This document shows positions 12,114 to 63,750 of a stretch of DNA of 64,000 nt, one piece after another. The stretch spans positions 1 to 64,000 of the IMG/VR virus record IMGVR_UViG_3300042013_000067. The stretch is one strand, 5' to 3'. Origin of the DNA: a virus (Duplodnaviria > Caudoviricetes). The notes under the pieces are model-generated. The model was given only the letters and a program-made list of their open reading frames with translations. It ran no database searches and was not told the DNA's origin. Position 1 is the stretch's first letter. Every line of letters starts with the position of its first letter. The translations under genes were made by a program, and so were the position numbers.

Positions 12114-12174
12114 ACCCAAATCCCCCTGCGCTAGTTACGGCTAGTGTTTATTTCGCTATGACTGGAGTTCCACT

Positions 12175-13173
12175 ATGCAACAGCAACAAGTTCCTGCTAT
12201 CCCGAAACTGGCCATCTACTGCGCTGGTGCTTTCGGCATCACCACCGGCACTCGCCAGAACGTCAACGGCGATACCAAAATGTACTACATCGACACCAGC
12301 GATGCCAACTTGACCAATGAGCTCCCGGCAGAGAAGTGCTACCGCATTCCAATGCCACCTTCGGCCGACAGCCGTGTGGTGCGTGGCGGTGGCGGTCAAG
12401 ATCGTCGTCGTACGGCCAAAGCTGCATTGCCGCACATCGCCCCGATCCTCGATCGCTTCGTACCGGGTGAATTCAACCTGCTGGTGTTCTCGTGCTCGGG
12501 TGCCTCGGGTTCGGTCATCGGTTCGCTGTTGGCTCGTGCGCTGGCGCAACAGGACCAGACCGTACTGATCCTGACCGTGGGTGACTTTGCGACGCCGAAG
12601 TACCTGACCAACACCAGCGACACCTGGAAAGGTCTGGAGAACTTCTCGCTGAACTTGAACCGCCCGTTCGTGATGTCCTACCATCAGAACCAACCGGGTT
12701 CGTCTCACACCCCAGTGAACGAAGACGTGGACTTCGTGATCGAAGCCATCATGGCCTTGACCACCCAGTTCAACAAAGACCTGGACGGCAGCGACATTCA
12801 CAACGCCCTGAACTTCAACAACGTGACCTCGGTGCCAGCACAACTGGCGACGATCACCATCACCGACAACCGCAAGGCCGCCTTGGCTGTACCGGAACCG
12901 ATCACCACCCTGTCGTTGTTCGTTGACCGCGAAGACTACAGCGTTATCGGCACACCACACTACACCAAAGCCGGCTATCCACAAGAACCGCTGGTGGCAG
13001 CGTTCGATCAACTGCACTTTATCGTAAACACCATTTCGGTCGACGACATCAACCGGCAGCTGCGCGAGCGTGAAACCGAGCAACAACAGACCCATGGCAA
13101 CTATCGCAAGCGCGCCGCGCTGGTGAACAGCCGTGATGACGAAATGACCGATGATGGTCTCGTAGTCTCTTAA
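12175..13173 (+). CDS. phuZ: phage tubulin PhuZ
   Basis: YCAGAFG, IDTS, GGGQDR, SGASGSVIG tubulin motifs; C-terminal DDGLVV tail; synteny. Confidence 0.9.
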   Translation: MQQQQVPAIPKLAIYCAGAFGITTGTRQNVNGDTKMYYIDTSDANLTNELPAEKCYRIPMPPSADSRVVRGGGGQDRRRTAKAALPHIAPILDRFVPGEFNLLVFSCSGASGSVIGSLLARALAQQDQTVLILTVGDFATPKYLTNTSDTWKGLENFSLNLNRPFVMSYHQNQPGSSHTPVNEDVDFVIEAIMALTTQFNKDLDGSDIHNALNFNNVTSVPAQLATITITDNRKAALAVPEPITTLSLFVDREDYSVIGTPHYTKAGYPQEPLVAAFDQLHFIVNTISVDDINRQLRERETEQQQTHGNYRKRAALVNSRDDEMTDDGLVVS

Positions 13174-25475: not shown

Positions 25476-27347
25476 ATGCCAATCATTGACGAAGAAAGCG
25501 GTAGCCAAGCTCAGCAACCAAACCAAGGCGCTGGCAACATGGGTACCAAAAACCCGTATGAGAACACCACCGCGAACGCCCAGCGCACCATGCAGCTCGG
25601 CGACGTCAACAGTGTGTTGGCTCGTGGCGGTAAGACCGACAACACCGAAGGCCGCTCTGGTGAGCTGCTGACCGCACTGACCGCCGCTGGCAAAGCCGCC
25701 GTGGCTTCGCAAAACCTGTCGCCTGACTACGACCTGATCCGCTTTGACCGCGATCAGCACCGTGTAGGCGTCGGCGCTATCCTGGTACTGCGTTCGTTCC
25801 GTAAAGGTGCGGAAACCTACATTGCTGTTCGTCCGCTGCTGGTCGACAACAAGCAGGTTTCGCTGAAACCACGCATCCTGAACATCGGCAACGAGCGCAT
25901 CGAGATCCCGACCTACGTCGCCGACACTCTGTCCGACGAATACTGGGCTCGCGTGGTTCGCCATGTTCAAGAGCACGTGGCCAACCCGAACGCGGTCGTC
26001 GCGAACGCCGGCTATCTGGAAGTGCCTGCTGACTTCGACGTCAGCGAAAAGAACACCGCTGACGTCACCAAGCTGCTGACCACTTCGGTCAACCGCTGCG
26101 ACGACGTGCTGGCTCGTGTTAACGGTGAAACTCCGTTCAACATCAGCTCCTTCAAGGCGCAGAACGAAGTTCTCACCGCCAAGCTGGATCTGTCCGGTAC
26201 TCCACGTTACGACCTGTTCGGCCAACCGATCCGTTCGGACATTACTGTCCTGATGAATCGTTCGATCAAGGGCAACAGCGACGCCGATCCGTTCTACGAC
26301 GCAGACACCCAGTTCTCTTCGGTGTCCTGCTACGTGAACCTGGAATACGCACCACCAGTGCAGCCACAGGGCTACGCGCCACAAGCCATCATGGAAACCC
26401 AGCTGTTCACCCCGACCATCGTCATCACTGACGTGCGTCAGGCGCCGTGGGTTGCGGCCAACACTCCTGAGCTGTACTTCCTGGCTCTGTCGAACGCCTA
26501 CCGCGTTACCGCTGGTACCGCCTGGGCTGGCAGCTTGCTGCCTGACGTAGCCAAGAAGGAAGATCCGCGCGACATCGGCGCGCTGACCTACCTGACCAAG
26601 GATGCGAAGAAGACCAAGACCAAGTCCGATACTTTCACCCCAGCTCACTTCGGTGAACTGATGTATCTCCTGGTCCGTCCGAACCCAACCTTCCTGATCG
26701 ACGTCAACCCAGTCGGCGAAAACGCCGCCATCGAAAACGTGCTGGTAATGGCGGCTTCCGATGGTCCACAGCGCGAGAAGGCTGTTGGGATGCTGGTCAA
26801 TGCTCTGAACAACCTGACTTCGGGTCAGTTCAGCCAGCAGTTCGACCACACCAAGCACCACATGATCCGCATGTACGGCACCGACGTGCACCGCGGCTAC
26901 TACCTGGACGAGCGCGAAGATCGTCACGATCTGCGCGATCTGGGTACCCTGGAAGCGCTGAACGCATCGGGTGGCAACATCCAAGAGTTCATCGCCTACT
27001 ACCGCACCATGTGCGACACCACCATCAACCCGGAAATCCGTCTGAAGCAGCGCGCTGGTTACGAGCGTCAGTACCTCAGCCAGAACCTGGTTATCAACGG
27101 CAAGTACCACCGTCTGGTATGGACTCCTGAGTTCATCGTGGCGCTGGACAATGCTGTGAAGGCGGCTGGTGTTTCTGTGGACGTGGAAAACGTGAGCACC
27201 GTTTACGGCACTCAGCGCTTCACCGGCAACACCGCTGTTACTCAGTTTGCTGTTTCGCAGCAAGCGACGTACGGCATGGGCGGCGCAGTGGGTGGCAACA
27301 CCTACGGTCTGCCTGGTGGCACCGGCGCTGGTACCATGACGTACTAA
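25476..27347 (+). CDS. chmA: chimallin, phage nuclear shell protein
   Basis: LIRFDRDQH, AVRPLL, SVNRCDD, VITDVR..ANTPELY.LALSNA, DIGAL match recalled 201phi2-1 gp105; 623 aa; upstream of RNAP beta' gene. Confidence 0.92.
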   Translation: MPIIDEESGSQAQQPNQGAGNMGTKNPYENTTANAQRTMQLGDVNSVLARGGKTDNTEGRSGELLTALTAAGKAAVASQNLSPDYDLIRFDRDQHRVGVGAILVLRSFRKGAETYIAVRPLLVDNKQVSLKPRILNIGNERIEIPTYVADTLSDEYWARVVRHVQEHVANPNAVVANAGYLEVPADFDVSEKNTADVTKLLTTSVNRCDDVLARVNGETPFNISSFKAQNEVLTAKLDLSGTPRYDLFGQPIRSDITVLMNRSIKGNSDADPFYDADTQFSSVSCYVNLEYAPPVQPQGYAPQAIMETQLFTPTIVITDVRQAPWVAANTPELYFLALSNAYRVTAGTAWAGSLLPDVAKKEDPRDIGALTYLTKDAKKTKTKSDTFTPAHFGELMYLLVRPNPTFLIDVNPVGENAAIENVLVMAASDGPQREKAVGMLVNALNNLTSGQFSQQFDHTKHHMIRMYGTDVHRGYYLDEREDRHDLRDLGTLEALNASGGNIQEFIAYYRTMCDTTINPEIRLKQRAGYERQYLSQNLVINGKYHRLVWTPEFIVALDNAVKAAGVSVDVENVSTVYGTQRFTGNTAVTQFAVSQQATYGMGGAVGGNTYGLPGGTGAGTMTY

Positions 27348-54797: not shown

Positions 54798-56897
54798 ATG
54801 CTCGAACTGTTACTTAGCTTCGGACGGACCCTAGGTGCTAACGACAATACGGACATTCCATTTGCACCAGACACCCCATTCAAGGGTATCGTACCCTCGG
54901 CGTCTTTTATTACGGGTGATGCACTGGCCGCTCAAATCGGTCTGACTGCTGGTGATCCGCTTAACACCAATGCGGGTTGGTTACACTTTATCGAAGACAA
55001 CGGCCTAGAACTACTGATCGCCAAGAAGCCACTGCGCTACAACTTATCGTGGGAACAAGTCAATACCGCAATAAGTGGTGGGGCTAGGGAACTTACCATC
55101 AACGGCGACGTTTACATTTGCCGTAACATCACCGGTGCAATAACCACTACAGCCGCAGCAGTGCCGTCTAACGCCGGTGGTGAGTGGAACCGTTACATGT
55201 ACAACGTCTATGACCAAACTGATCGGTCCGGGATCCCTGAGGCGTTGCTCTGGGGTAATTACACTGAGGCTATGTTGGGCATCCCAACAACATCAGGTGG
55301 TAATGATCTCAGCAATGCTGCCTTCACCATGTGTTCGGAGACCCTTACTAACGGGTATTGCCTGCGTGGTAACGACTGGCAGAATTCCAGTGGTGGTCAC
55401 AACATCAAAGGCATCTGGAACATGCCGGCGAACAACCCACAGACGTACTACGGTTGGCGTCCGGTGTTGGTGAAGAAGTCGACACTACCATCTTCACCAT
55501 TTAAAGGTGAGGTATTGGCAGCGGATCTGATCACTGGTCCAGCGTTGGTCGCGGCAGTGGGTGTCACTACGGGTACAGCGTTTGGTAACGGGAGCCCGGA
55601 TTGGCTTAAGTTCGTAGACAATGGTAAGACATTCTACATCGCCAAGAAGCCATTGCGTACCGGTGTTACATGGGAGATCCTTAACGGTTTCGGTGCGGTA
55701 TTCGGAACCAAGGTTATCACTATCGGTGATAAGCAGTATCGGGTACGTCTGATGACAGGCGGTAACGCCGACCCTGCCAGCACTGGAGGTGGTGAATACA
55801 ACAACTACTTCTCACGTTGCACTACCTACTACACGGGTGCTGCTTCCGATCGCTTTGCCAACTACAGCGGTGCTGACGTAGGTTGGGCGGGTGGTACTAG
55901 CTCCGGTGAACTCTCCCTGATTCAAGAACATACCGGTTCGTCAGGTCCAGGGGCGCGTGGTTACCCAGGCTTCTTGGGTCTGTGGTATCAAGTTGCAAAC
56001 ACTACGCACTCGGGTTACGGATGGCGTCCAGTGTTGGAACTGATCGGTGATACACCGGTGTTGGTGGATACGTGGAGTCAGATCGCCACACTACCAGCTG
56101 GGGTCAACGGAGCCAGTGCTTGTGTGATTGCGGATAAGCTCTATGTCTACGGTGGTCAAGATGCATCCTTTGCCGTTAAGGGAGCCTTGTACGAAGTCAA
56201 TCTGTCTACGGGTGAGGTCATCACCAAAACAGCTGACATCCCACGTCGTTATCACGCCGCTGTAGCTATCGGTGGGAAGATGTATGTCTACGGTGGTTAC
56301 ACCACGGCATATGACGCAGCCGTACGGATCTATGATCCAGCTACTGATACCTGGAGTGCTGGTCTGGCTGGTATCGCAAGTGACCGTCATGGCTACGCGA
56401 TGTACAACAGCAAACTCTATGCATGGGGTGGTAACAACGGCACCACACTGAGTCAACTGAGAACATATACCCCAGCCGGCAACACTTGGGCTAACGTCAC
56501 CATTACTGGTGTAGCAGCGGCATCTGTTTACTTAGGTTCTGCTGATGTCTTCGGTAACTATGCCTACACACTCACAGGCTACAACAGCCCGAAACAATTC
56601 CGACAAGTCAACCTACTCACTAACGTGGGTGCCGCATTGCCTGACGCGCCACATGGTGTCTACGGTCATGCACACGGTTCGATGAAGAACGGTATCTACG
56701 TCTTCGGTGGTACAGTTGACACTGTTGACAAGGACAAGAGTGTACTGCGTTTCGACGTCAACACACTAGTCTGGAGTTACCACGGCACTATTCCGTACAC
56801 GATCGGTGAACGCGCAGCATCTGCTCAAGATGCCAGCAACATCTATCTGGCGGGTGGTGTAGGTGCTCCTACCGCAGTTTGGAAGTACACCCCGTAA
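54798..56897 (+). CDS. virion-type protein: two ~200-aa GWRPVL modules plus C-terminal six-bladed Kelch propeller
   Basis: modules end in YGWRPVL; six Kelch blades (KLYVYGG, KMYVYGG, KLYAWGG, YAYTLTG, IYVFGG, IYLAGG). Confidence 0.75.
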   Translation: MLELLLSFGRTLGANDNTDIPFAPDTPFKGIVPSASFITGDALAAQIGLTAGDPLNTNAGWLHFIEDNGLELLIAKKPLRYNLSWEQVNTAISGGARELTINGDVYICRNITGAITTTAAAVPSNAGGEWNRYMYNVYDQTDRSGIPEALLWGNYTEAMLGIPTTSGGNDLSNAAFTMCSETLTNGYCLRGNDWQNSSGGHNIKGIWNMPANNPQTYYGWRPVLVKKSTLPSSPFKGEVLAADLITGPALVAAVGVTTGTAFGNGSPDWLKFVDNGKTFYIAKKPLRTGVTWEILNGFGAVFGTKVITIGDKQYRVRLMTGGNADPASTGGGEYNNYFSRCTTYYTGAASDRFANYSGADVGWAGGTSSGELSLIQEHTGSSGPGARGYPGFLGLWYQVANTTHSGYGWRPVLELIGDTPVLVDTWSQIATLPAGVNGASACVIADKLYVYGGQDASFAVKGALYEVNLSTGEVITKTADIPRRYHAAVAIGGKMYVYGGYTTAYDAAVRIYDPATDTWSAGLAGIASDRHGYAMYNSKLYAWGGNNGTTLSQLRTYTPAGNTWANVTITGVAAASVYLGSADVFGNYAYTLTGYNSPKQFRQVNLLTNVGAALPDAPHGVYGHAHGSMKNGIYVFGGTVDTVDKDKSVLRFDVNTLVWSYHGTIPYTIGERAASAQDASNIYLAGGVGAPTAVWKYTP

Positions 56898-56898
56898 C

Positions 56899-56933
56899 GG
56901 CATAAGGCCCTCCCTAAACGGGGAGGGCTATGC
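56899..56933. terminator. CATA-hairpin-TATG element
   Basis: GGCATAAG-GCCCTCCC-TAAACG-GGGAGGGC-TATGC. Confidence 0.7.
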
Positions 56934-56976
56934 AATCGAACAGACTATAGTTAGGAAGTATGTAGGGGTACCAGTC

Positions 56977-58320
56977 ATGCTGGAAATGTTATTGCATTAT
57001 AACCCCCCATCCGGATCGGGACCGTTCACCCCACCTGAGGTGATCGCAGGTAAGGCCTTCCAAGGATGGGTTGCTAGTGGTGATTTTATAACGGGTGATG
57101 CGCTAGCCACAGCCATTGGTTTGGCGGCTGGTACGTCGCACAACAGTGACGCAGGCTGGCTTCATTACATCGATGGCGCACGTGAGTTCTACATCGCACG
57201 TAAAACACTGCGATATAACCTAAGCTGGAGTCCGATTGAGATTGCCTTAGGTAGCCCAAATAAGATCATTCAGATTGGGGCGGACTATTACCAAGTCAAA
57301 CAAATGACGTCGATGTCGGTTGATCCTTTTTCTAGCATCGTCAGTAACGATGGTGGTGGCGATTGGAACAAATATATCTACCCATTGGTCTCTGGGCCGG
57401 CACGGGCACAGTTCACGGCTGAGGTATGGTCGTACTATACCGAAACCGATCTTGGTCTGTCTGCAGTATGGGGGACCCAACCAAATGGTTCGATCACCCA
57501 TACGGTGGAAAAACACAACACCATACCTGATATTCGTGCCGCTCGTGGACGAACCTATTCAGGTAGCACTGCAGTGTCCAGTGTAACTGGACGCACTGTG
57601 TATAATGCAGCTAACCCTAGCGAAGGTAACGCAGGTACAGGGTTAAGTCAGTATGGCTGGCGCCCGATCTTAGAGAAAGTACCTGAGCCACCACCGGCTG
57701 ATCTGTATTATGGTGAGGTAGCTTCAGCTGACTTCATTACGGCATCGGCTCTGGCGACCGCTGTAGGTGCGAGCGCATTGGGTACAGTAACCAATGCTGA
57801 CGTCAGTTGGCTGAAGTTCCGTATTGATGGTAAGACCCAGTACATCGCCAAGAAGCCATTGCGTCATGGCGTCACATGGAATAGCCTCAATGCACTAGGT
57901 CTGGTGTTTGGCACCCAGACGGTGGTTATTGGTGGACAGACGTATAAAGTGCGCCTACCCACAGGGACCTCGGTACCTTCAGCCAACGTATACAACCCAG
58001 CGCACATGGGTGGCGATTTCAACGACATGATCTACCCAATCTACGGTGGGGTAGTGATTAACCACGCGATGGTTCAAGCCTACCCGCGCTGGGCAGCCTT
58101 CACCGATGCCGAGCTTGGCCTCAACACCGTGAAATCACCAATCATCAACGGTGGTTTGACCTTGTGCCAAGAACTCGCTGCTCAAGGGGGTTATCTGGTG
58201 CGTGGCTATAACGACAATGACAACGCCGGTGTAGCTCAGTTGGTAGCTGGTTGGTACGTCACTGGAGACTCCACGATACAATACTCTGGTTGGCGTCCAG
58301 TGTTGGAGCTGGTTCCTTAA
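56977..58320 (+). CDS. paralog with two GWRPVL modules and no Kelch domain
   Basis: MLEMLL start mirrors MLELLL of the upstream gene; same module motifs. Confidence 0.75.
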   Translation: MLEMLLHYNPPSGSGPFTPPEVIAGKAFQGWVASGDFITGDALATAIGLAAGTSHNSDAGWLHYIDGAREFYIARKTLRYNLSWSPIEIALGSPNKIIQIGADYYQVKQMTSMSVDPFSSIVSNDGGGDWNKYIYPLVSGPARAQFTAEVWSYYTETDLGLSAVWGTQPNGSITHTVEKHNTIPDIRAARGRTYSGSTAVSSVTGRTVYNAANPSEGNAGTGLSQYGWRPILEKVPEPPPADLYYGEVASADFITASALATAVGASALGTVTNADVSWLKFRIDGKTQYIAKKPLRHGVTWNSLNALGLVFGTQTVVIGGQTYKVRLPTGTSVPSANVYNPAHMGGDFNDMIYPIYGGVVINHAMVQAYPRWAAFTDAELGLNTVKSPIINGGLTLCQELAAQGGYLVRGYNDNDNAGVAQLVAGWYVTGDSTIQYSGWRPVLELVP

Positions 58321-58322
58321 CA

Positions 58323-58360
58323 GCATAAAGCCCCTCCCGTGATGGGAGGGGCCTATGTCC
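58323..58360. terminator. CATA-hairpin-TATG element between convergent genes
   Basis: GCATAAA-GCCCCTCCC-GTGAT-GGGAGGGGC-CTATGTCC. Confidence 0.7.
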
Positions 58361-58362
58361 GC

Positions 58363-59199
58363 TTAGAACGTTTTATATTCCGCGCGAAGGGTTTCGACAT
58401 GCCTGCCTGTTTTCAGATGGGTCTGGATGATGTCGTAGTGGTCGACCTTGACATGGATGTGGTATTTCACATCCTCTTTAAGGTCAGGCCAACTGTAAAC
58501 GGAAGTACCGTCAGAATTCTGCGACACCACTAAGTCGGCTTTGTTGGCGGTGTCCCATTCAGCTTCGATCAACTGACAGTTCAGGACGAGTGCTTTTTTC
58601 ATCTGTTCAGCACATTCCTGTATCGAGCCCCCTAGGTTAACGGTGACTGGGGCAAGTGCGTCACGTACCCCACCCAAGGTGTTTGCCATCAACATGGTGG
58701 CTTTCATGGCTTTGGCCATAGGGGGATCAATGAGCTCGTCAGGGCGGTAGCTACCGATGCCCGGTGAGTAGAACTGGATGTGGTCAATGCTGCGATTGTC
58801 ACCGCGTTGGGCGAAGGACTGTGCCTTACCCTGAATCTGGTCGAACTCTTCCTTCGTCAGGGTAACTTGACCTGCCTCGTAGTCGATCAACGCGTAGTAG
58901 CAAAGACGCGCCACCTTCCAGTAGGTGATGTCGTAGTTGTCATCGTCCTGACACGTATCGTGCCCGGTCACCAGGTTGATGTGGTGCTCACCCAGTGCGC
59001 GCTGTACGTCCTTACGCTCCTCCAACATCTCAATGACCGCCGTGAGTTCAAGGAACTCATTGCGCAGCTCCATGATGGCATTGCGGCCTTTGTACTGACT
59101 GGCCACACCGTGATGCTGACACTTGAGGGCTTCTTTGGTGACTTCGGAAGCTTCTTCAGCTAGCTTGCCCAAGAGGTACTGCGTCCAATTCATGCTCAT
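58363..59199 (-). CDS. MazG-like all-alpha NTP pyrophosphohydrolase N-terminal domain plus unknown C-terminal region
   Basis: KLAEEASEV..EALK...G...LRNEFLEL.AVIEML. Confidence 0.55.
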   Translation of the reverse strand: MSMNWTQYLLGKLAEEASEVTKEALKCQHHGVASQYKGRNAIMELRNEFLELTAVIEMLEERKDVQRALGEHHINLVTGHDTCQDDDNYDITYWKVARLCYYALIDYEAGQVTLTKEEFDQIQGKAQSFAQRGDNRSIDHIQFYSPGIGSYRPDELIDPPMAKAMKATMLMANTLGGVRDALAPVTVNLGGSIQECAEQMKKALVLNCQLIEAEWDTANKADLVVSQNSDGTSVYSWPDLKEDVKYHIHVKVDHYDIIQTHLKTGRHVETLRAEYKTF

Positions 59200-60028
59200 C
59201 TAACATCTCCGCTGGTCTATTGAGAAATTCGTCAATGATCGGCAGTACCCGATCGAGGTCCGTAAGAAGGAACAGGTGTCCATCGTTAAACACGTGAAAC
59301 TCACTGTTCGGTATCTGTAGAGCTAACACCTTCATGTTAGTCAGTGGTATCAACGGATCGTCGTTACCCGCTAACACCAAGGTAGGTTGCTTAAGCTTGT
59401 GCAGCCAAGGCAGACTGGACCACCAGTACACCGCCGCCACCTGATAGTAATAGCCATAACTACTGCGATGGGCATGGTTGGCTTTGTCCTCTGCCATCTT
59501 CTCAGCATGGATAGCAGCCAAGGCTTTGTCATAGCGGAACTTACCCCCGTAGATGGACGGAGCAATACTAGCCGCATACGCAGGGTCAGTATAGCGCCGT
59601 GGACTGGCCATCAGGCACAACACACGCCAACTCGGCATGAAGGAGATAATCCCCGCTGAAGTAGCTGCCAGTATCAACCGGCGGCAACGCTGAGGATAGT
59701 CGTGTGCGAACTGCTGCGCTAGGAAGCCACCCCACGACAGACCGATAACATCTACTTGACCATAATCCAAATGGTCCAGCATTTGGGTGACGATCTTGGT
59801 CAAGCCAGAGAAACGGTAGGGGAGCAGCGGGGTAGATGAACCCCCAACACCTGGAACGTCAAAGGCAATAACTTCCAAATCAGGACGCATTGCTCGGACA
59901 AAAGGTAGCACCAGCTCCAGACTGGCGCCGATACCGTTGAACATCAGAAGCGGGGTTGTCTTTTTAAGGCCAGGGCGTACTGCTACCCTGATGGTCTGCC
60001 CATTAAGATCGATTGTTTTAATATCCAC
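59156..60028 (-). CDS. phaZ: intracellular poly(3-hydroxyalkanoate) depolymerase, alpha/beta hydrolase
   Basis: VRPG...TPLLMFNGIGASLELV.PF, DVPGVGGSSTP..PYRF, lipase box GLSWGG, GNDDPLIP (Asp), DGHLFL (His): close match to recalled Pseudomonas PhaZ. Confidence 0.9.
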   Translation of the reverse strand: MDIKTIDLNGQTIRVAVRPGLKKTTPLLMFNGIGASLELVLPFVRAMRPDLEVIAFDVPGVGGSSTPLLPYRFSGLTKIVTQMLDHLDYGQVDVIGLSWGGFLAQQFAHDYPQRCRRLILAATSAGIISFMPSWRVLCLMASPRRYTDPAYAASIAPSIYGGKFRYDKALAAIHAEKMAEDKANHAHRSSYGYYYQVAAVYWWSSLPWLHKLKQPTLVLAGNDDPLIPLTNMKVLALQIPNSEFHVFNDGHLFLLTDLDRVLPIIDEFLNRPAEMLDEHELDAVPLGQAS

Positions 60029-60029
60029 T

Positions 60030-60479
60030 TTATGCCGTATCCTTGACGTCGAACATGCTATACGAGTCGAGCATCAGCGCTGGCTCATTGAGGAGCTCGG
60101 CTAGTGCTCGGGCTTGTGACACCGGTGTAGTTGCAAAACGATCTGAAAGCAGGTTACCTGCCCTCATAGCTATTACCCTTAGCTCTGCGAAGAGAGCTGG
60201 GTTTTCATGCACCCACCGACGCCACAGCTCCTTGTAGGCAGCATATACATCGACCGTAGGGTCGAGTGGTGGTTTTCCCTTACCAATACGCCAGTCATCA
60301 ATGCCAGGAGTACCGTAACCCTTCACGGAAAGCTGGTAGTGCTCCTCAATGGTGAACCCGTCAGAAAGACGGGCTACCATTGCTGAGAACCGACGGTCTC
60401 CTTTCGTGGAGCATTCTAAGCCGCCAAATCGCGACCACTTGAATTGTCCACTGCTGGTTGAGGACTGGCCGCTTGCTTT
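60030..60479 (-). CDS. NADAR/YbiA-like domain, N-terminus overlapping polymerase gene in the -1 frame
   Basis: FKWSRFGGLECSTKGDRRFSAMVARLSDGFTIEEHYQLSVKG...W..ENPAL..EL; frame open 60503-60030 but first start codon is ATG 60380. Confidence 0.6.
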   Translation of the reverse strand, partial: KASGQSSTSSGQFKWSRFGGLECSTKGDRRFSAMVARLSDGFTIEEHYQLSVKGYGTPGIDDWRIGKGKPPLDPTVDVYAAYKELWRRWVHENPALFAELRVIAMRAGNLLSDRFATTPVSQARALAELLNEPALMLDSYSMFDVKDTA

Positions 60480-62380
60480 TTTGCTTTGTGTGCCAAGTAG
60501 GCATCAAGCATGGTATCGAATGCTGGAGCACCCATGAGCTTCTGTGTGATCTCGACCGCGTTCACGCGACCGCCCGTTAAGTTGACCCCGAACTCACGCC
60601 GTACTGCTTCGGTGATCCCCTGAATCTGACAGAACTCCATAACGCAGGTTTCCCGTGCGATGTTGAGGATCTGCGAAACGTTCGGGTAAGTTGACACAAT
60701 GTCCAAGTCGGCTACGTGTGTAAAGATCAGCGTGAGATAATCTCGCATTTCCTCCACACAGTCCATACCCTCTGCCGCCGCCATATACGAAGGCAACGTG
60801 ACGATCCAATCGTCATGGCCAATCACGAACTTATCCAGTTCGGTGGACATCTGATCGGACGCTGTACCAATCACCGACTTGTTCGGACGGTTCAAGTACC
60901 AGAAGTGCATATCGTCGCAAAGACGTTTTGGGTTGGAGTTAAAGTTCTTGAAGTCCGAGTTCTTCGAATACATCGTAATCGACGAAGCCAGATCTTTAGT
61001 CTTCTCGTCCAGTTGCTCCAGGCGAATACTGTCGACGATGTTGTAAACACCGTAGATGATCTTGTGCTTGGTCTGCATCACTTCGTGCCAACGCAGACCG
61101 GTGTGCTGATCGGTTTCCTTGATCTTCAGTTTATCGAAGTCCAACTTCACTTCACAGACGTCACCCACCTTCACCATGTCGTGGTGGAAGTTCTCCACCA
61201 GTTCATCGTTGATGTAGTAGTAGACGAATCCACCCTTGCCACGGACCATGTCATTGGCTTTGTCGATAAATGCTTGGATATCGCCCGGCGCTTTGATCTT
61301 GGCTTCGTACTCGCTATTGAGTTCCTTCTTCAGAATCGCAGACAGGGCATACGACGGATCTTTACCGTTGGCCAGTCGAGTAATGCGATATACAGTCATC
61401 GCATCAATGCACTGGAAGGTCGCTGGATGGGTTACCCAGTTCCACCGGTCTTCCACGTTAATGGACATGACCTTACCAGAAGCCGTGGTCTTCTGTGTGT
61501 TACCCTTACGGTAGTTGAAGTACTTGTATTTCTGCGGTACCGTCGGGTCACTGAACACCGAAGCCAGATCAATACCTTCTTTCTCCAGAGCACGGATGAT
61601 TTTGCTCATGTCGAAGTCCATGTTCCAGAAAGCAAACCAATCTGGCTTCCAGACGTGGAGCATCTCGATACAACGCATGACCACTTGGCCTGGCGTATCA
61701 GCGATCAGAACTTCAATGTTCAGCTTACGTTCATCGATCAGAGACGGAATAAGTCGCTTGGCCTCAGCCAAGGTCTCAGCTACGGGGTCAGCGATATCAC
61801 CGATCCAGCTCTTCAGATAAACTAAGCGGACGTTTTCTTTGTGACTGACCGACATGCAGATAATGTCATCTGTGCCATTGACTACGTCGGTCTCAATGTC
61901 ACCACCACCGACTGTGTTAAAGCTGATGGTTTCTGGATACTTGCTGCGGTACTCAGCCTTGATGCAGCATGCGGAGTTAACGTCAGCACCGTACACGTAC
62001 GGGTTACGTTGGATAACGCGTTGTTGTGGGCGATGGCCTGGGTTAATGTCCAGGACTTTGGCGATGCTCTTAACCAAGTCGAGTTGCGTAGTCTTGAACT
62101 CTTGCAGATTGCTAACGAGTTCGTAGTCTTTCTTCTCTTCGTGGTTACGACGGCCTTTATGGGTAATCCAGAAAGGGCGTTTATAGTTCTCTTCAAACCG
62201 CAGACGGGGAATACGCCGACCGTCATCCAGGTGTACAACTTCCTTTACAATCAACATGTCGCTGAGGCCACGTTCTTGGTCAACGACATAAGTAATATGC
62301 TTTGCTTCAAAGCCTGTAGGTTTTACGATGTTGCTCACGAGATTCCCCTTCAGGTCTGTGTACGTACGATAACGTGGCAA
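60416..62380 (-). CDS. split family-B DNA polymerase, 3'-5' exonuclease / motif A subunit (phiKZ gp82-like)
   Basis: ExoI DIET, ExoII WNMDFD, ExoIII YNIVD, motif A DIVSTYPN. Confidence 0.85.
   Translation of the reverse strand: MPRYRTYTDLKGNLVSNIVKPTGFEAKHITYVVDQERGLSDMLIVKEVVHLDDGRRIPRLRFEENYKRPFWITHKGRRNHEEKKDYELVSNLQEFKTTQLDLVKSIAKVLDINPGHRPQQRVIQRNPYVYGADVNSACCIKAEYRSKYPETISFNTVGGGDIETDVVNGTDDIICMSVSHKENVRLVYLKSWIGDIADPVAETLAEAKRLIPSLIDERKLNIEVLIADTPGQVVMRCIEMLHVWKPDWFAFWNMDFDMSKIIRALEKEGIDLASVFSDPTVPQKYKYFNYRKGNTQKTTASGKVMSINVEDRWNWVTHPATFQCIDAMTVYRITRLANGKDPSYALSAILKKELNSEYEAKIKAPGDIQAFIDKANDMVRGKGGFVYYYINDELVENFHHDMVKVGDVCEVKLDFDKLKIKETDQHTGLRWHEVMQTKHKIIYGVYNIVDSIRLEQLDEKTKDLASSITMYSKNSDFKNFNSNPKRLCDDMHFWYLNRPNKSVIGTASDQMSTELDKFVIGHDDWIVTLPSYMAAAEGMDCVEEMRDYLTLIFTHVADLDIVSTYPNVSQILNIARETCVMEFCQIQGITEAVRREFGVNLTGGRVNAVEITQKLMGAPAFDTMLDAYLAHKAKKQAASPQPAVDNSSGRDLAA
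60476..60482 (-). promoter_or_regulatory. candidate -1 slippery heptamer A_AAA_AAG
   Basis: GCA AAA AAG in frame of the 60416-62380 gene. Confidence 0.55.
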
Positions 62381-62430
62381 AGTATTCTTATGAATATGAT
62401 TACAACGTCCTGCTTAGGATAGGTCTCCCC

Positions 62431-63750
62431 ATGTCAAAAGAAACCGTCTCGCTTGAGCTGTTGAACGCAAAAGCCAAGCGTCCGCTCGGCATTCGTATCG
62501 AAGCGGTGGTTGAAAAGTGGATTGAACGACGTGAGTTCAGCTACTTCTACACCAGCGAACAACTGCTCGAATTGCAAAAGATTGTAAAAGAAGAGATGGG
62601 TGTAAACGTCGAGTTCGAAATCATCGATAACCCGTCGATCAACGCCGCTGTCGGGATCGTACGAATCCCAGGTCATTCGGGCAGCACCTACTGTGGCCCA
62701 GGTACGAAGGCTGTTACGGTGGTCAGTCGTAGCCTGCCACAAGAACTGCGCAAGATTAAGATCGACCTCGATAAGGGTAAGATCACCGGCGCACTGCTGG
62801 ATGACTTCAAGAACAAGGTCACCATCTTCAGCGGTATGATTCAGCATCCGATCGGCATTACCGCCGAAGAAGTTACTGCTGCGATTACCCATGAACTCGG
62901 GCATGTGTGGAACCAGTACTTCACCCTCGGTGATTACGTTTGGTTGAACTATTACCTGCAAGACGGTCTGGAAGTGCTGCAGGGCACTAAGCCCAACATC
63001 TATAAGCTGGAGATCCTTACCGAAGCAGGGCTTGAGAAGTTCTGTAGCGATAAGGAGGCTTTGGCTGAGATGAAGCGGGCACCGACAGCGAAGAACGTTC
63101 GTCGGGTGATCCTGATGGCCTTCCAGAAAGCCCCACGCCATCACCTGACCGCCAGTAACAACAACACCTCGTGGTTACGTGAAGAACAGCTCGCTGATCT
63201 GTTCGCTTCCCGTATGGGCTACGCCCGTGCTTCGGTGACGTTACAGGCGAAGATGGATAAGATCTATGGTAGTCGTTACCTGATCGGTTCTACCGCCTTT
63301 GCATTCATGGAAGTAACCAAGGTAGTGCTTAATACAGCAGCCCTGCTAACGACCGTTGCCGCGATTGCATATCCTCCGATCTTGTTGGTGGCTCTGGCCA
63401 TGCGTATCACCGCCGCTAACATGGGTCCGGATGACGATCCTCTTATCTACGATAACGACATGGAGCGTAACATCAAGTTCCGTCGTGACCTCGTGGCCCA
63501 GCTTAAAGTGTTGGGTAAGGACAAAGGGCTGGAAGAGAAGATCCTAGCCGACATCGCCATGATCGATGAGGTACTGGCGATCTATCGCAAGAACACTACT
63601 GTCTGGGAATCGATACAGATCCTGATCAACCCAGACGTACGGCGTAATCGCCATCAGCGTGCTCGTGAAGAGGACCTGGAAATGTTGCTTAACAACGACC
63701 TGTTCGTTGCTGCGGCTAAATTCAATGCACTGTCGAGGACTTTACCATGA
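62431..63750 (+). CDS. virion protein (phiKZ gp83-like) with HExxH metallopeptidase-like motif and hydrophobic segment
   Basis: AITHELGH, EQLADLFASRMGY, hydrophobic LLTTVAAIAYPPILLVALAM. Confidence 0.6.
   Translation: MSKETVSLELLNAKAKRPLGIRIEAVVEKWIERREFSYFYTSEQLLELQKIVKEEMGVNVEFEIIDNPSINAAVGIVRIPGHSGSTYCGPGTKAVTVVSRSLPQELRKIKIDLDKGKITGALLDDFKNKVTIFSGMIQHPIGITAEEVTAAITHELGHVWNQYFTLGDYVWLNYYLQDGLEVLQGTKPNIYKLEILTEAGLEKFCSDKEALAEMKRAPTAKNVRRVILMAFQKAPRHHLTASNNNTSWLREEQLADLFASRMGYARASVTLQAKMDKIYGSRYLIGSTAFAFMEVTKVVLNTAALLTTVAAIAYPPILLVALAMRITAANMGPDDDPLIYDNDMERNIKFRRDLVAQLKVLGKDKGLEEKILADIAMIDEVLAIYRKNTTVWESIQILINPDVRRNRHQRAREEDLEMLLNNDLFVAAAKFNALSRTLP

Follow-up and report, generated by a model that had tools for sequence, protein, structure and literature searches.

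We describe here phaZ, a gene predicted to encode an intracellular depolymerase of medium-chain-length polyhydroxyalkanoates (mcl-PHA) in the genome of a jumbo phage. The stretch of DNA analysed (the window) covers positions 1 to 64,000 of IMG/VR record IMGVR_UViG_3300042013_000067, which derives from a rhizosphere metagenome. A reading of this DNA made from its letters alone (the sequence-only reading) had identified the gene as a full-length PhaZ with an intact Ser-Asp-His triad and proposed that it taps the PHA stores of the host during infection. The gene and its conserved elements, compared with PhaZKT of Pseudomonas putida KT2440, lie as follows.

59156-60028, minus strand: phaZ, encoding a PhaZ-family alpha/beta hydrolase of 290 aa from a GTG start (open reading frame and its translation)
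59927-59941, minus strand: FNGIG loop, residues 30-34, equivalent to PhaZKT residues 34-38 and including the essential Asn
59726-59743, minus strand: lipase box GLSWGG with the predicted nucleophile Ser98 (codon 59735-59737), matching PhaZKT Ser102
59468-59491, minus strand: lid-hinge insertion EDKANHAH, residues 180-187, clade-specific in the alignment
59357-59359, minus strand: predicted catalytic Asp224, the second D of NDDP, equivalent to PhaZKT Asp221 and invariant in all rows
59276-59278, minus strand: predicted catalytic His251 in DGHLF, equivalent to PhaZKT His248 and invariant in all rows

The phaZ product scores 382.6 bits (E 1e-114; cut-off 250.6) against TIGR02240, the NCBIfam equivalog model for poly(3-hydroxyalkanoate) depolymerase, and a six-frame search of the genome gives the same score. 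Its Pfam matches are generic alpha/beta-hydrolase domains only, and PHROGs assigns it only to a generic esterase/lipase family. Ser98 is kept in 189 of 189 aligned rows, including all 64 from viral contexts, and the whole triad is kept in 64/64 viral rows. GLSWGG (59743-59726), DDPL (residues 223-226) and GHLF (residues 250-253) lie where the sequence-only reading had placed them, and its claim of a full-length enzyme with an intact triad is borne out. Asn31 of the FNGIG loop is invariant in one alignment and nearly invariant in a second. PhaZKT uses Ser102, Asp221 and His248 for catalysis, loses its activity when the FNGIG loop is deleted, and is reported to need the triad, the GxSxG box and the loop for activity (PMC12504323).

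An AlphaFold2 model of the protein, built from 60 homologues, reaches a predicted local distance difference test score (pLDDT) of 93.5 and places helices 134-211 between strands 115-121 and 216-221. Its top fold match in Swiss-Prot is the PhaZ of P. oleovorans (P26495; template modelling (TM) score 0.89, 56% identity, E 7e-41), and generic hydrolases in the same search reach E ~1e-19. No solved structure of a TIGR02240-type PhaZ was found in the copy of the PDB searched, where the nearest entries are metagenomic esterases; the nearest structures to the phaZ product are esterases, lipases and one enzyme that degrades acyl-homoserine lactones (AHL), with no PHA depolymerases among them. In the alignment the protein resembles cytoplasmic PhaZ in having neither an N-terminal extension nor a signal sequence. 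Judged by score, fold and catalytic features, phaZ is thus predicted to encode a divergent member of the PhaZ family. It shares with PhaZKT and P26495 the alpha/beta core and lid, the triad, the GxSWGG and FNGIG motifs, a similar length, the lack of a signal peptide and a TIGR02240 score over the cut-off, but it is only 59-61% identical to chromosomal PhaZ, falls outside the chromosomal clade, is not flanked by phaC1 and phaC2, and differs in its lid and in its phage-like codon composition. The close match to Pseudomonas PhaZ that the sequence-only reading had claimed amounts to this 59-61% identity.

The genome that carries this gene is that of a true phage. The record is 283,622 bp long, has direct terminal repeats and is rated 100% complete. 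The isolated phage closest to it is Noxifer (278 kb; ~79% nucleotide identity over the polymerase region), a Pseudomonas phage whose host is P. fluorescens SBW25. Searches by tblastn with phiKZ gp54, gp39, gp55, gp71, gp74, gp68 and gp69 gave matches at E 2e-36 to 0, all within the window, where phiKZ proteins also detect the two parts of the DNA polymerase, together with several RNA polymerase subunits of the non-virion and virion types. Two of the matches identify hallmark proteins.

25476-27347, plus strand: homologue of chimallin, the phage nuclear shell protein (38% identity to phiKZ gp54, E 6e-107)
12145-13173, plus strand: homologue of the PhuZ tubulin (33% identity to phiKZ gp39, E 2e-36, over 12457-13164)

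The presence of chimallin, PhuZ and phage RNA polymerase subunits indicates that the carrier is a nucleus-forming chimallivirus (Chimalliviridae), as the sequence-only reading had held.

The immediate surroundings of phaZ, all on one strand and in the order DNA polymerase, a 116-aa open reading frame (ORF), phaZ and a MazG-like nucleoside triphosphate (NTP) pyrophosphohydrolase, can be compared directly with those of Noxifer.

60416-62380, minus strand: DNA polymerase subunit, first gene of the co-directional run (phrog_3011, 751.9 bits; 79% nucleotide identity to Noxifer gp083)
60030-60380, minus strand: 116-aa ORF upstream of phaZ (phrog_9995; 79% identity to Noxifer gp082)
59200-60081, no strand assigned: 882-bp cassette with phaZ and without homology to Noxifer, replacing 438 bp that hold Noxifer gp081
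58363-59199, minus strand: MazG-like NTP pyrophosphohydrolase downstream of phaZ (phrog_4856; 70% identity to Noxifer gp080)

In the phaZ region, blastn homology to Noxifer is confined to 58009-59199 and 60082-62480. Noxifer has the same gene order with an unrelated gene of 149 aa, gp081, in the place of phaZ, and it has no phaZ homologue; a homologue of gp081 was not found elsewhere in the genome of the present phage. The idea that gp081 might be a degraded PhaZ was ruled out, as it has no similarity to PhaZ. With the MazG-like protein as query over the viral contigs Noxifer was the sole match, and more distant homologues of this gene are also found in Pseudomonas phages. Intracellular degradation of mcl-PHA has been called a Pseudomonas-specific trait (PMC12504323), and this, the host of Noxifer and the homologues of the MazG-like gene all point to a Pseudomonas host. 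The sequence-only reading had placed phaZ behind the polymerase gene; it is indeed co-directional with the polymerase run, but the 116-aa ORF (60030-60380) intervenes. The TAA stop of that ORF ends 1 nucleotide (nt) ahead of the GTG of phaZ. At the other end, the start of the MazG-like gene, which has a GGAG ribosome-binding site of its own, overlaps the 3' end of phaZ by 44 nt. A scan of 58000-62700 for promoters and terminators gave nothing clearly above shuffled expectation, and no RNA data set was listed for the region or for the gene, which speaks neither for nor against expression. Beyond the MazG-like gene lie two adjacent, overlapping and paralogous genes for virion proteins of 699 and 485 aa (54798-58320). 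Both belong to phrog_1062, and the C-terminus of the first is Kelch-like and repetitive; Noxifer carries the same pair, gp078 and gp079.

The last 20 residues of the protein (RPAEMLDEHELDAVPLGQAS; window 59156-59215) have no counterpart in its relatives and are modelled with low confidence. They arise because the phaZ frame extends 44 nt into the conserved start of the MazG-like gene, and they stand where host PhaZ has the C-terminal tail EERQRAVMHP, which is missing here. The tail looks as if the stop codon of the cassette itself was lost at insertion.

A single stand-alone gene of bacterial type in a variable slot could in principle be misassembled host DNA, or a recently captured passenger without function. 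Several observations speak against this. Phage genes stand on both sides of phaZ (DNA polymerase, the gp082 homologue, the MazG-like gene and virion proteins), and both flanks are collinear with Noxifer. The gene has the composition of the phage, with 51.9% GC compared with 52.0% for the phage genome and with 62-67% (79-91% at third codon positions) for Pseudomonas phaZ. One 82.6-kb contig spans the region, and short contigs from a second rhizosphere study are identical to parts of phaZ and cross its junction with the upstream ORF. The gene also fails to group with host phaZ, its catalytic motifs are all intact, and synonymous divergence (dS) from most of the relatives compared is saturated at a nonsynonymous divergence (dN) of 0.18-0.30, as set out below. 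We consider an artefact or dead cargo extremely improbable and this reading effectively refuted; the contamination and misassembly that the sequence-only reading had named as a risk are excluded by the terminal repeats, the Noxifer-collinear flanks, the phage-like GC content and the identical pieces from the second study.

In order to place the gene relative to host phaZ, a main tree of 72 rows was calculated with IQ-TREE (LG+C20 PMSF) and rooted on clusters of <=50% identity, the outgroups being 50%-identity cluster representatives. Chromosomal, phaC-flanked PhaZ form one tight clade (support 100/99) that excludes the window PhaZ, which falls in another clade with 100/99 support; its 24 rows are phage-context sequences, metagenome sequences without assignment and one bacterial sequence. 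Forcing the window and host clades together costs 85 log-likelihood units and is rejected (approximately unbiased (AU) test, p 1.2e-5). When 300 genomes from across the class to which a Pseudomonas genome belongs were surveyed, only two further bacterial homologues came up, and these were left out of the trees. Identity among the chromosomal sequences sampled is 82% or more, among viral-context rows it drops as low as 46%, and between the window protein and the host set it is 59-61%. The tree therefore does not support the borrowing from a host pha operon that the sequence-only reading had implied: the window PhaZ is, on these placements, no orthologue of the chromosomal Pseudomonas gene, and it appears to belong to an old, diverse, phage-borne lineage instead of being a recent host capture. 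How the two groups are related is less clear-cut. In the main tree the host clade is sister to the all-phage group with weak support (90/40), in a quick LG+G4 tree the chromosomal clade falls inside the phage diversity, and nesting of the host clade among phage sequences is not rejected (AU p 0.225). Because the sister and nested placements both stand, we claim no direction of transfer.

The one bacterial sequence in the window's clade comes from P. lini CC269 (NZ_JAUSSR010000005.1, L069:4995-5807). It is a second, orphan PhaZ of phage type that scores 333 bits on TIGR02240 and adjoins polysaccharide-synthesis and sensor histidine-kinase genes; a canonical phaZ (606 bits) is also present in this strain. 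The orphan is nested in the phage clade next to the phage-context sequence P0013, a position which suggests that it passed from a phage-type source to the chromosome.

Among phage copies dN/dS is 0.055-0.12 where dS is unsaturated. Most comparisons of the window gene with its relatives show saturated dS, with dN of 0.18-0.30. On these ratios the phage lineage is under purifying selection.

The nearest sequences among 5.8 billion proteins are 70-77% identical and come from metagenome assemblies, and named Pseudomonas PhaZ in the same search are ~60-65% identical. A profile scan of IMG/VR found relatives on 58 viral contigs, in addition to metagenome contigs (Logan/ENA) with phage neighbours, and every relative context that was looked up is phage-like. 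These contexts include contigs of 223-229 kb that encode Cpn60 and Kelch-type fibres, and a contig whose phage DNA polymerase is divergent. T4 baseplate, tail-tube and gp2 genes occur on another contig, NAPRTase, RNase T, Ro60 and RNase H on a further one, and Mu gp6, SIR2, dUTPase, NADAR or a homologue of T4 Y07B on others. Strong PHROG matches were obtained for 7 of 10 large neighbour proteins taken from different viral loci. With Pseudomonas PhaC1 as the probe, phaC adjoins phaZ at none of 65 viral and metagenome loci, as opposed to 79 of 80 loci in Pseudomonas genomes. This agrees with what had been said of the host arrangement and of the stand-alone phage gene, which has no phaC adjoining it; a search of the whole phage genome likewise found no PhaC (PhaC_N), acyl-CoA synthetase or second alpha/beta hydrolase.

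Counting only full-length shared neighbours, 69 phage loci resolve into ~24 distinct neighbourhoods, and that of the window is unique among the 69. The window PhaZ is the only member of the lineage found in a Noxifer-like chimallivirus, and the carriers of its closest relatives (223-229-kb phages and the phage with the divergent DNA polymerase) are unrelated to the window phage. It resembles these relatives in its identity to them of up to 77%, in the shared hinge insertion and GTG start (the latter common to L004, L005, L009 and L157), in standing alone among phage genes and in its signature of purifying selection. Among complete genomes the nearest relative, at 75% identity, is that of a 229-kb phage in which chimallin is missing. 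Chimallin is likewise missing from a second carrier, a complete phage of 104 kb; a further carrier is T4-like, and L043, a record of 307 kb, is a second chimallivirus with PhaZ. L011, L033 and L047 gave no megablast match to the collection of isolated phages, and their neighbour proteins match phages of many different hosts. Taken together, we tentatively propose, at somewhat less than even confidence, an old and highly diversified viral PhaZ lineage, as deep as or deeper than the chromosomal Pseudomonas clade, that would have been exchanged among at least 24 unrelated phage backbones (nucleus-forming and other jumbo phages, T4-like phages and phages of ~100 kb), with an occasional return to bacteria as in the P. 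lini orphan.

Some further features of these carriers may be recorded. The closest PhaZ relatives include those of complete or near-complete jumbo phages of ~225 kb from food and other metagenomes (L005:1-63, L004, L011), which gave no nucleotide match to an isolated phage of the collection; a Cpn60-type chaperonin is encoded on at least one of these contigs, L005. Genes for NAD and ADP-ribose metabolism turn up repeatedly next to phage PhaZ in contexts that are otherwise unrelated, namely NAPRTase with PRPP synthetase (L155), an ADP-ribosyl glycohydrolase with SIR2 (L159) and NADAR (L160), and so do Band_7 and Metallophos genes (L155, L159). The recurrent NAD/ADP-ribose neighbours may just mirror shared accessory regions.

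Full-text literature searches, the coverage of which is incomplete, returned no paper on mcl-PHA depolymerases in phages. A large PhaZ lineage spread across many unrelated phages is thus apparently undescribed. The gene lies inside a true phage genome, and it is a predicted homologue of a host metabolic enzyme outside the core phage life cycle, two of the marks of an auxiliary metabolic gene (AMG). The description of phaZ as an unusual AMG fits the literature searched, but with relatives on 58 IMG/VR contigs the gene is common in metagenomic phages.

The region in which the window PhaZ departs most from host PhaZ is the lid, which controls substrate access. Its identity to the host consensus is 49%, compared with 62-73% for the core, and 61% of the lid positions that are invariant in hosts are kept. 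The insertion EDKANHAH, which the sequence-only reading had noticed, is present, but it is not private to this gene: it forms a loop of variable length (7-9 extra residues) common to the window gene's phage clade, and chromosomal PhaZ lacks it, as do several other phage clades. The model has a pLDDT of ~82 across residues 181-190. The insertion maps beside the position of PhaZKT Ser184, and the window protein reads YYYQVA where the PhaZKT hinge has YYWQLF. In PhaZKT the hinge YYWQLF (190-195) and the Ser184 region are essential for depolymerase and not for esterase activity, and the exchange S184F nearly abolishes depolymerase activity and raises esterase activity (PMC12504323).

The divergence of the lid, together with the hinge insertion, makes an altered substrate possible. 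The PhaZ scaffold and triad might have been kept while a remodelled lid aims the enzyme at another host ester, candidates being 3-(3-hydroxyalkanoyloxy)alkanoic acids (rhamnolipid precursors), acylglycerols, membrane lipids and AHL; the gain would then lie in host takeover, lysis or signalling and not in carbon mobilisation. Such retargeting is suggested by the low lid identity and the loss of host-invariant lid positions, by an insertion next to the S184F switch and the altered hinge sequence, by the esterases, lipases and AHL-degrading enzyme among the nearest solved structures, by the generic esterase/lipase family in PHROGs and by the esterase/lipase annotation of the distant homologue that the Ralstonia phages RP12 and RP31 carry. 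The score of the protein nevertheless exceeds the curated cut-off of the PhaZ equivalog, and a PhaZ model wins the fold match by 20 orders of magnitude. Several other phage clades without the insertion still keep the gene, and lids usually diverge faster than cores, so that the difference may mean nothing. Lastly, no lysis genes were found in the neighbourhood of phaZ, and the protein has no signal peptide that would take it to the envelope. We regard a retargeted esterase as unlikely, though worth keeping in view.

The function that we favour, and consider fairly probable from sequence and model, is that of an intracellular PhaZ that hydrolyses the mcl-PHA granules of the host and so fuels infection. 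phaZ would be a stand-alone cargo gene of a rhizosphere, Noxifer-like, nucleus-forming Pseudomonas jumbo phage. It would be expressed in the infected cell, probably as part of the co-directional run that the DNA polymerase gene heads, and its translation would be coupled to the upstream ORF. The cytoplasmic enzyme would attack host PHA granules and release (R)-3-hydroxyalkanoic acids, which host acyl-CoA synthetase and beta-oxidation could turn into acetyl-CoA, reducing power and ATP. The energy and carbon released may support the replication of a 284-kb genome in cells that are rich in carbon and limited in nutrients, and the depolymerase would be the only contribution of the phage to the pathway.

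Some points weigh against this function. The phage protein scores well below chromosomal PhaZ on TIGR02240, which reach 606-632 bits. The lid is less similar to the host consensus than the core is, and the clade-specific residues at the hinge, beside the S184F site, come with YYYQVA in place of YYWQLF; either may have changed what the enzyme accepts. Since the phage brings no acyl-CoA synthetase, use of the monomers would depend on host enzymes that are active during infection. PHA provides carbon and energy, and not the nitrogen and phosphorus that limit nucleotide synthesis. Moreover, that the host of this uncultured phage is a Pseudomonas is something we only infer.

A different benefit from the same activity has also to be considered. 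Bulky granules may hinder the centring of the phage nucleus and the traffic of capsids, so that their removal would help a phage with a nucleus and a PhuZ spindle, as the sequence-only reading had suggested; alternatively, the phage might rewire the PHA cycle in order to stop the sequestration of carbon. The phage does encode chimallin and PhuZ, the second chimallivirus (307 kb, L043) carries PhaZ as well, and in P. putida the PHA cycle is reported to be tuned by the level of PhaZ (PMC8764540). The gene is found, however, as a 75%-identity relative in the 229-kb phage without chimallin, in the 104-kb phage without chimallin and in a T4-like carrier. A nucleus-specific role is unlikely because the carriers include complete phages without chimallin; the function selected across the lineage cannot be one that requires a nucleus. 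We therefore disfavour granule clearance for the nucleus and spindle, and consider clearance and rewiring together to be improbable as the benefit gained.

The window PhaZ can also be set beside other known systems. A full-length homologue, ORF269 (45% identity), occurs in just two isolated phages of the collection, RP12 and RP31, which are jumbo phages of Ralstonia solanacearum. In RP12 this gene (L002:4980-5795) lies near genes for phage RNA polymerase beta subunits and is annotated as an esterase/lipase. Like the window gene, ORF269 is a stand-alone alpha/beta hydrolase of the wider family in a jumbo phage, with a conserved triad; unlike it, ORF269 groups with the outgroup clusters, apart from Pseudomonas and phage PhaZ. 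Ralstonia stores short-chain polyhydroxybutyrate (PHB).

The nearest conceptual analogue, though not a member of the family, is Bdellovibrio bacteriovorus. Depolymerases directed against the PHA of its prey give Bdellovibrio a fitness benefit. It is likewise an intracellular parasite that brings a depolymerase for the storage polyester of its victim, but it is a bacterial predator with a metabolism of its own, and its enzymes are of extracellular type and of a different family. PHA depolymerase in predation is the subject of PMC4834554 and PMC7174725. A PHB depolymerase of a cyanobacterium prophage offers a second comparison, being a virus-associated PHA depolymerase that was proposed as a carbon-utilisation AMG. 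It differs in being of the short-chain type, other than the Pseudomonas mcl family, and in being proposed to help a lysogen and not a virulent jumbo phage; no lineage analysis accompanies it.

Pseudomonads that are limited in nutrients can store much of their dry mass as PHA, and to our knowledge little is understood of how phages replicate in cells that grow slowly and are loaded with carbon. A depolymerase that selection maintains across many unrelated phages would offer a concrete mechanism for tapping this reserve, and with it the AMG concept would reach beyond genes of photosynthesis, nucleotide and sulfur metabolism to the mobilisation of storage polymers. What is new here is the presence of PhaZ in a Noxifer-like nucleus-forming jumbo phage, its clean cassette replacement relative to a culturable sister, evidence for a function that is not specific to the nucleus, and a clade insertion mapped to the lid hinge. 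Noxifer on P. fluorescens SBW25, as that culturable sister without phaZ, allows a clean genetic comparison. Targeted, rational changes to the lid of PhaZKT abolished activity (PMC12504323), and for this reason the phage lineage, as a natural library of PhaZ lid variants, is of interest for the enzymatic recycling of mcl-PHA and for bioplastics. If the viral PhaZ lineage is as old and as widely exchanged as proposed above, the dismantling of host storage polyester would be a widespread and unrecognised phage strategy and a new carbon-storage class of AMG, with relevance for carbon turnover in the rhizosphere, in food and in engineered PHA systems.

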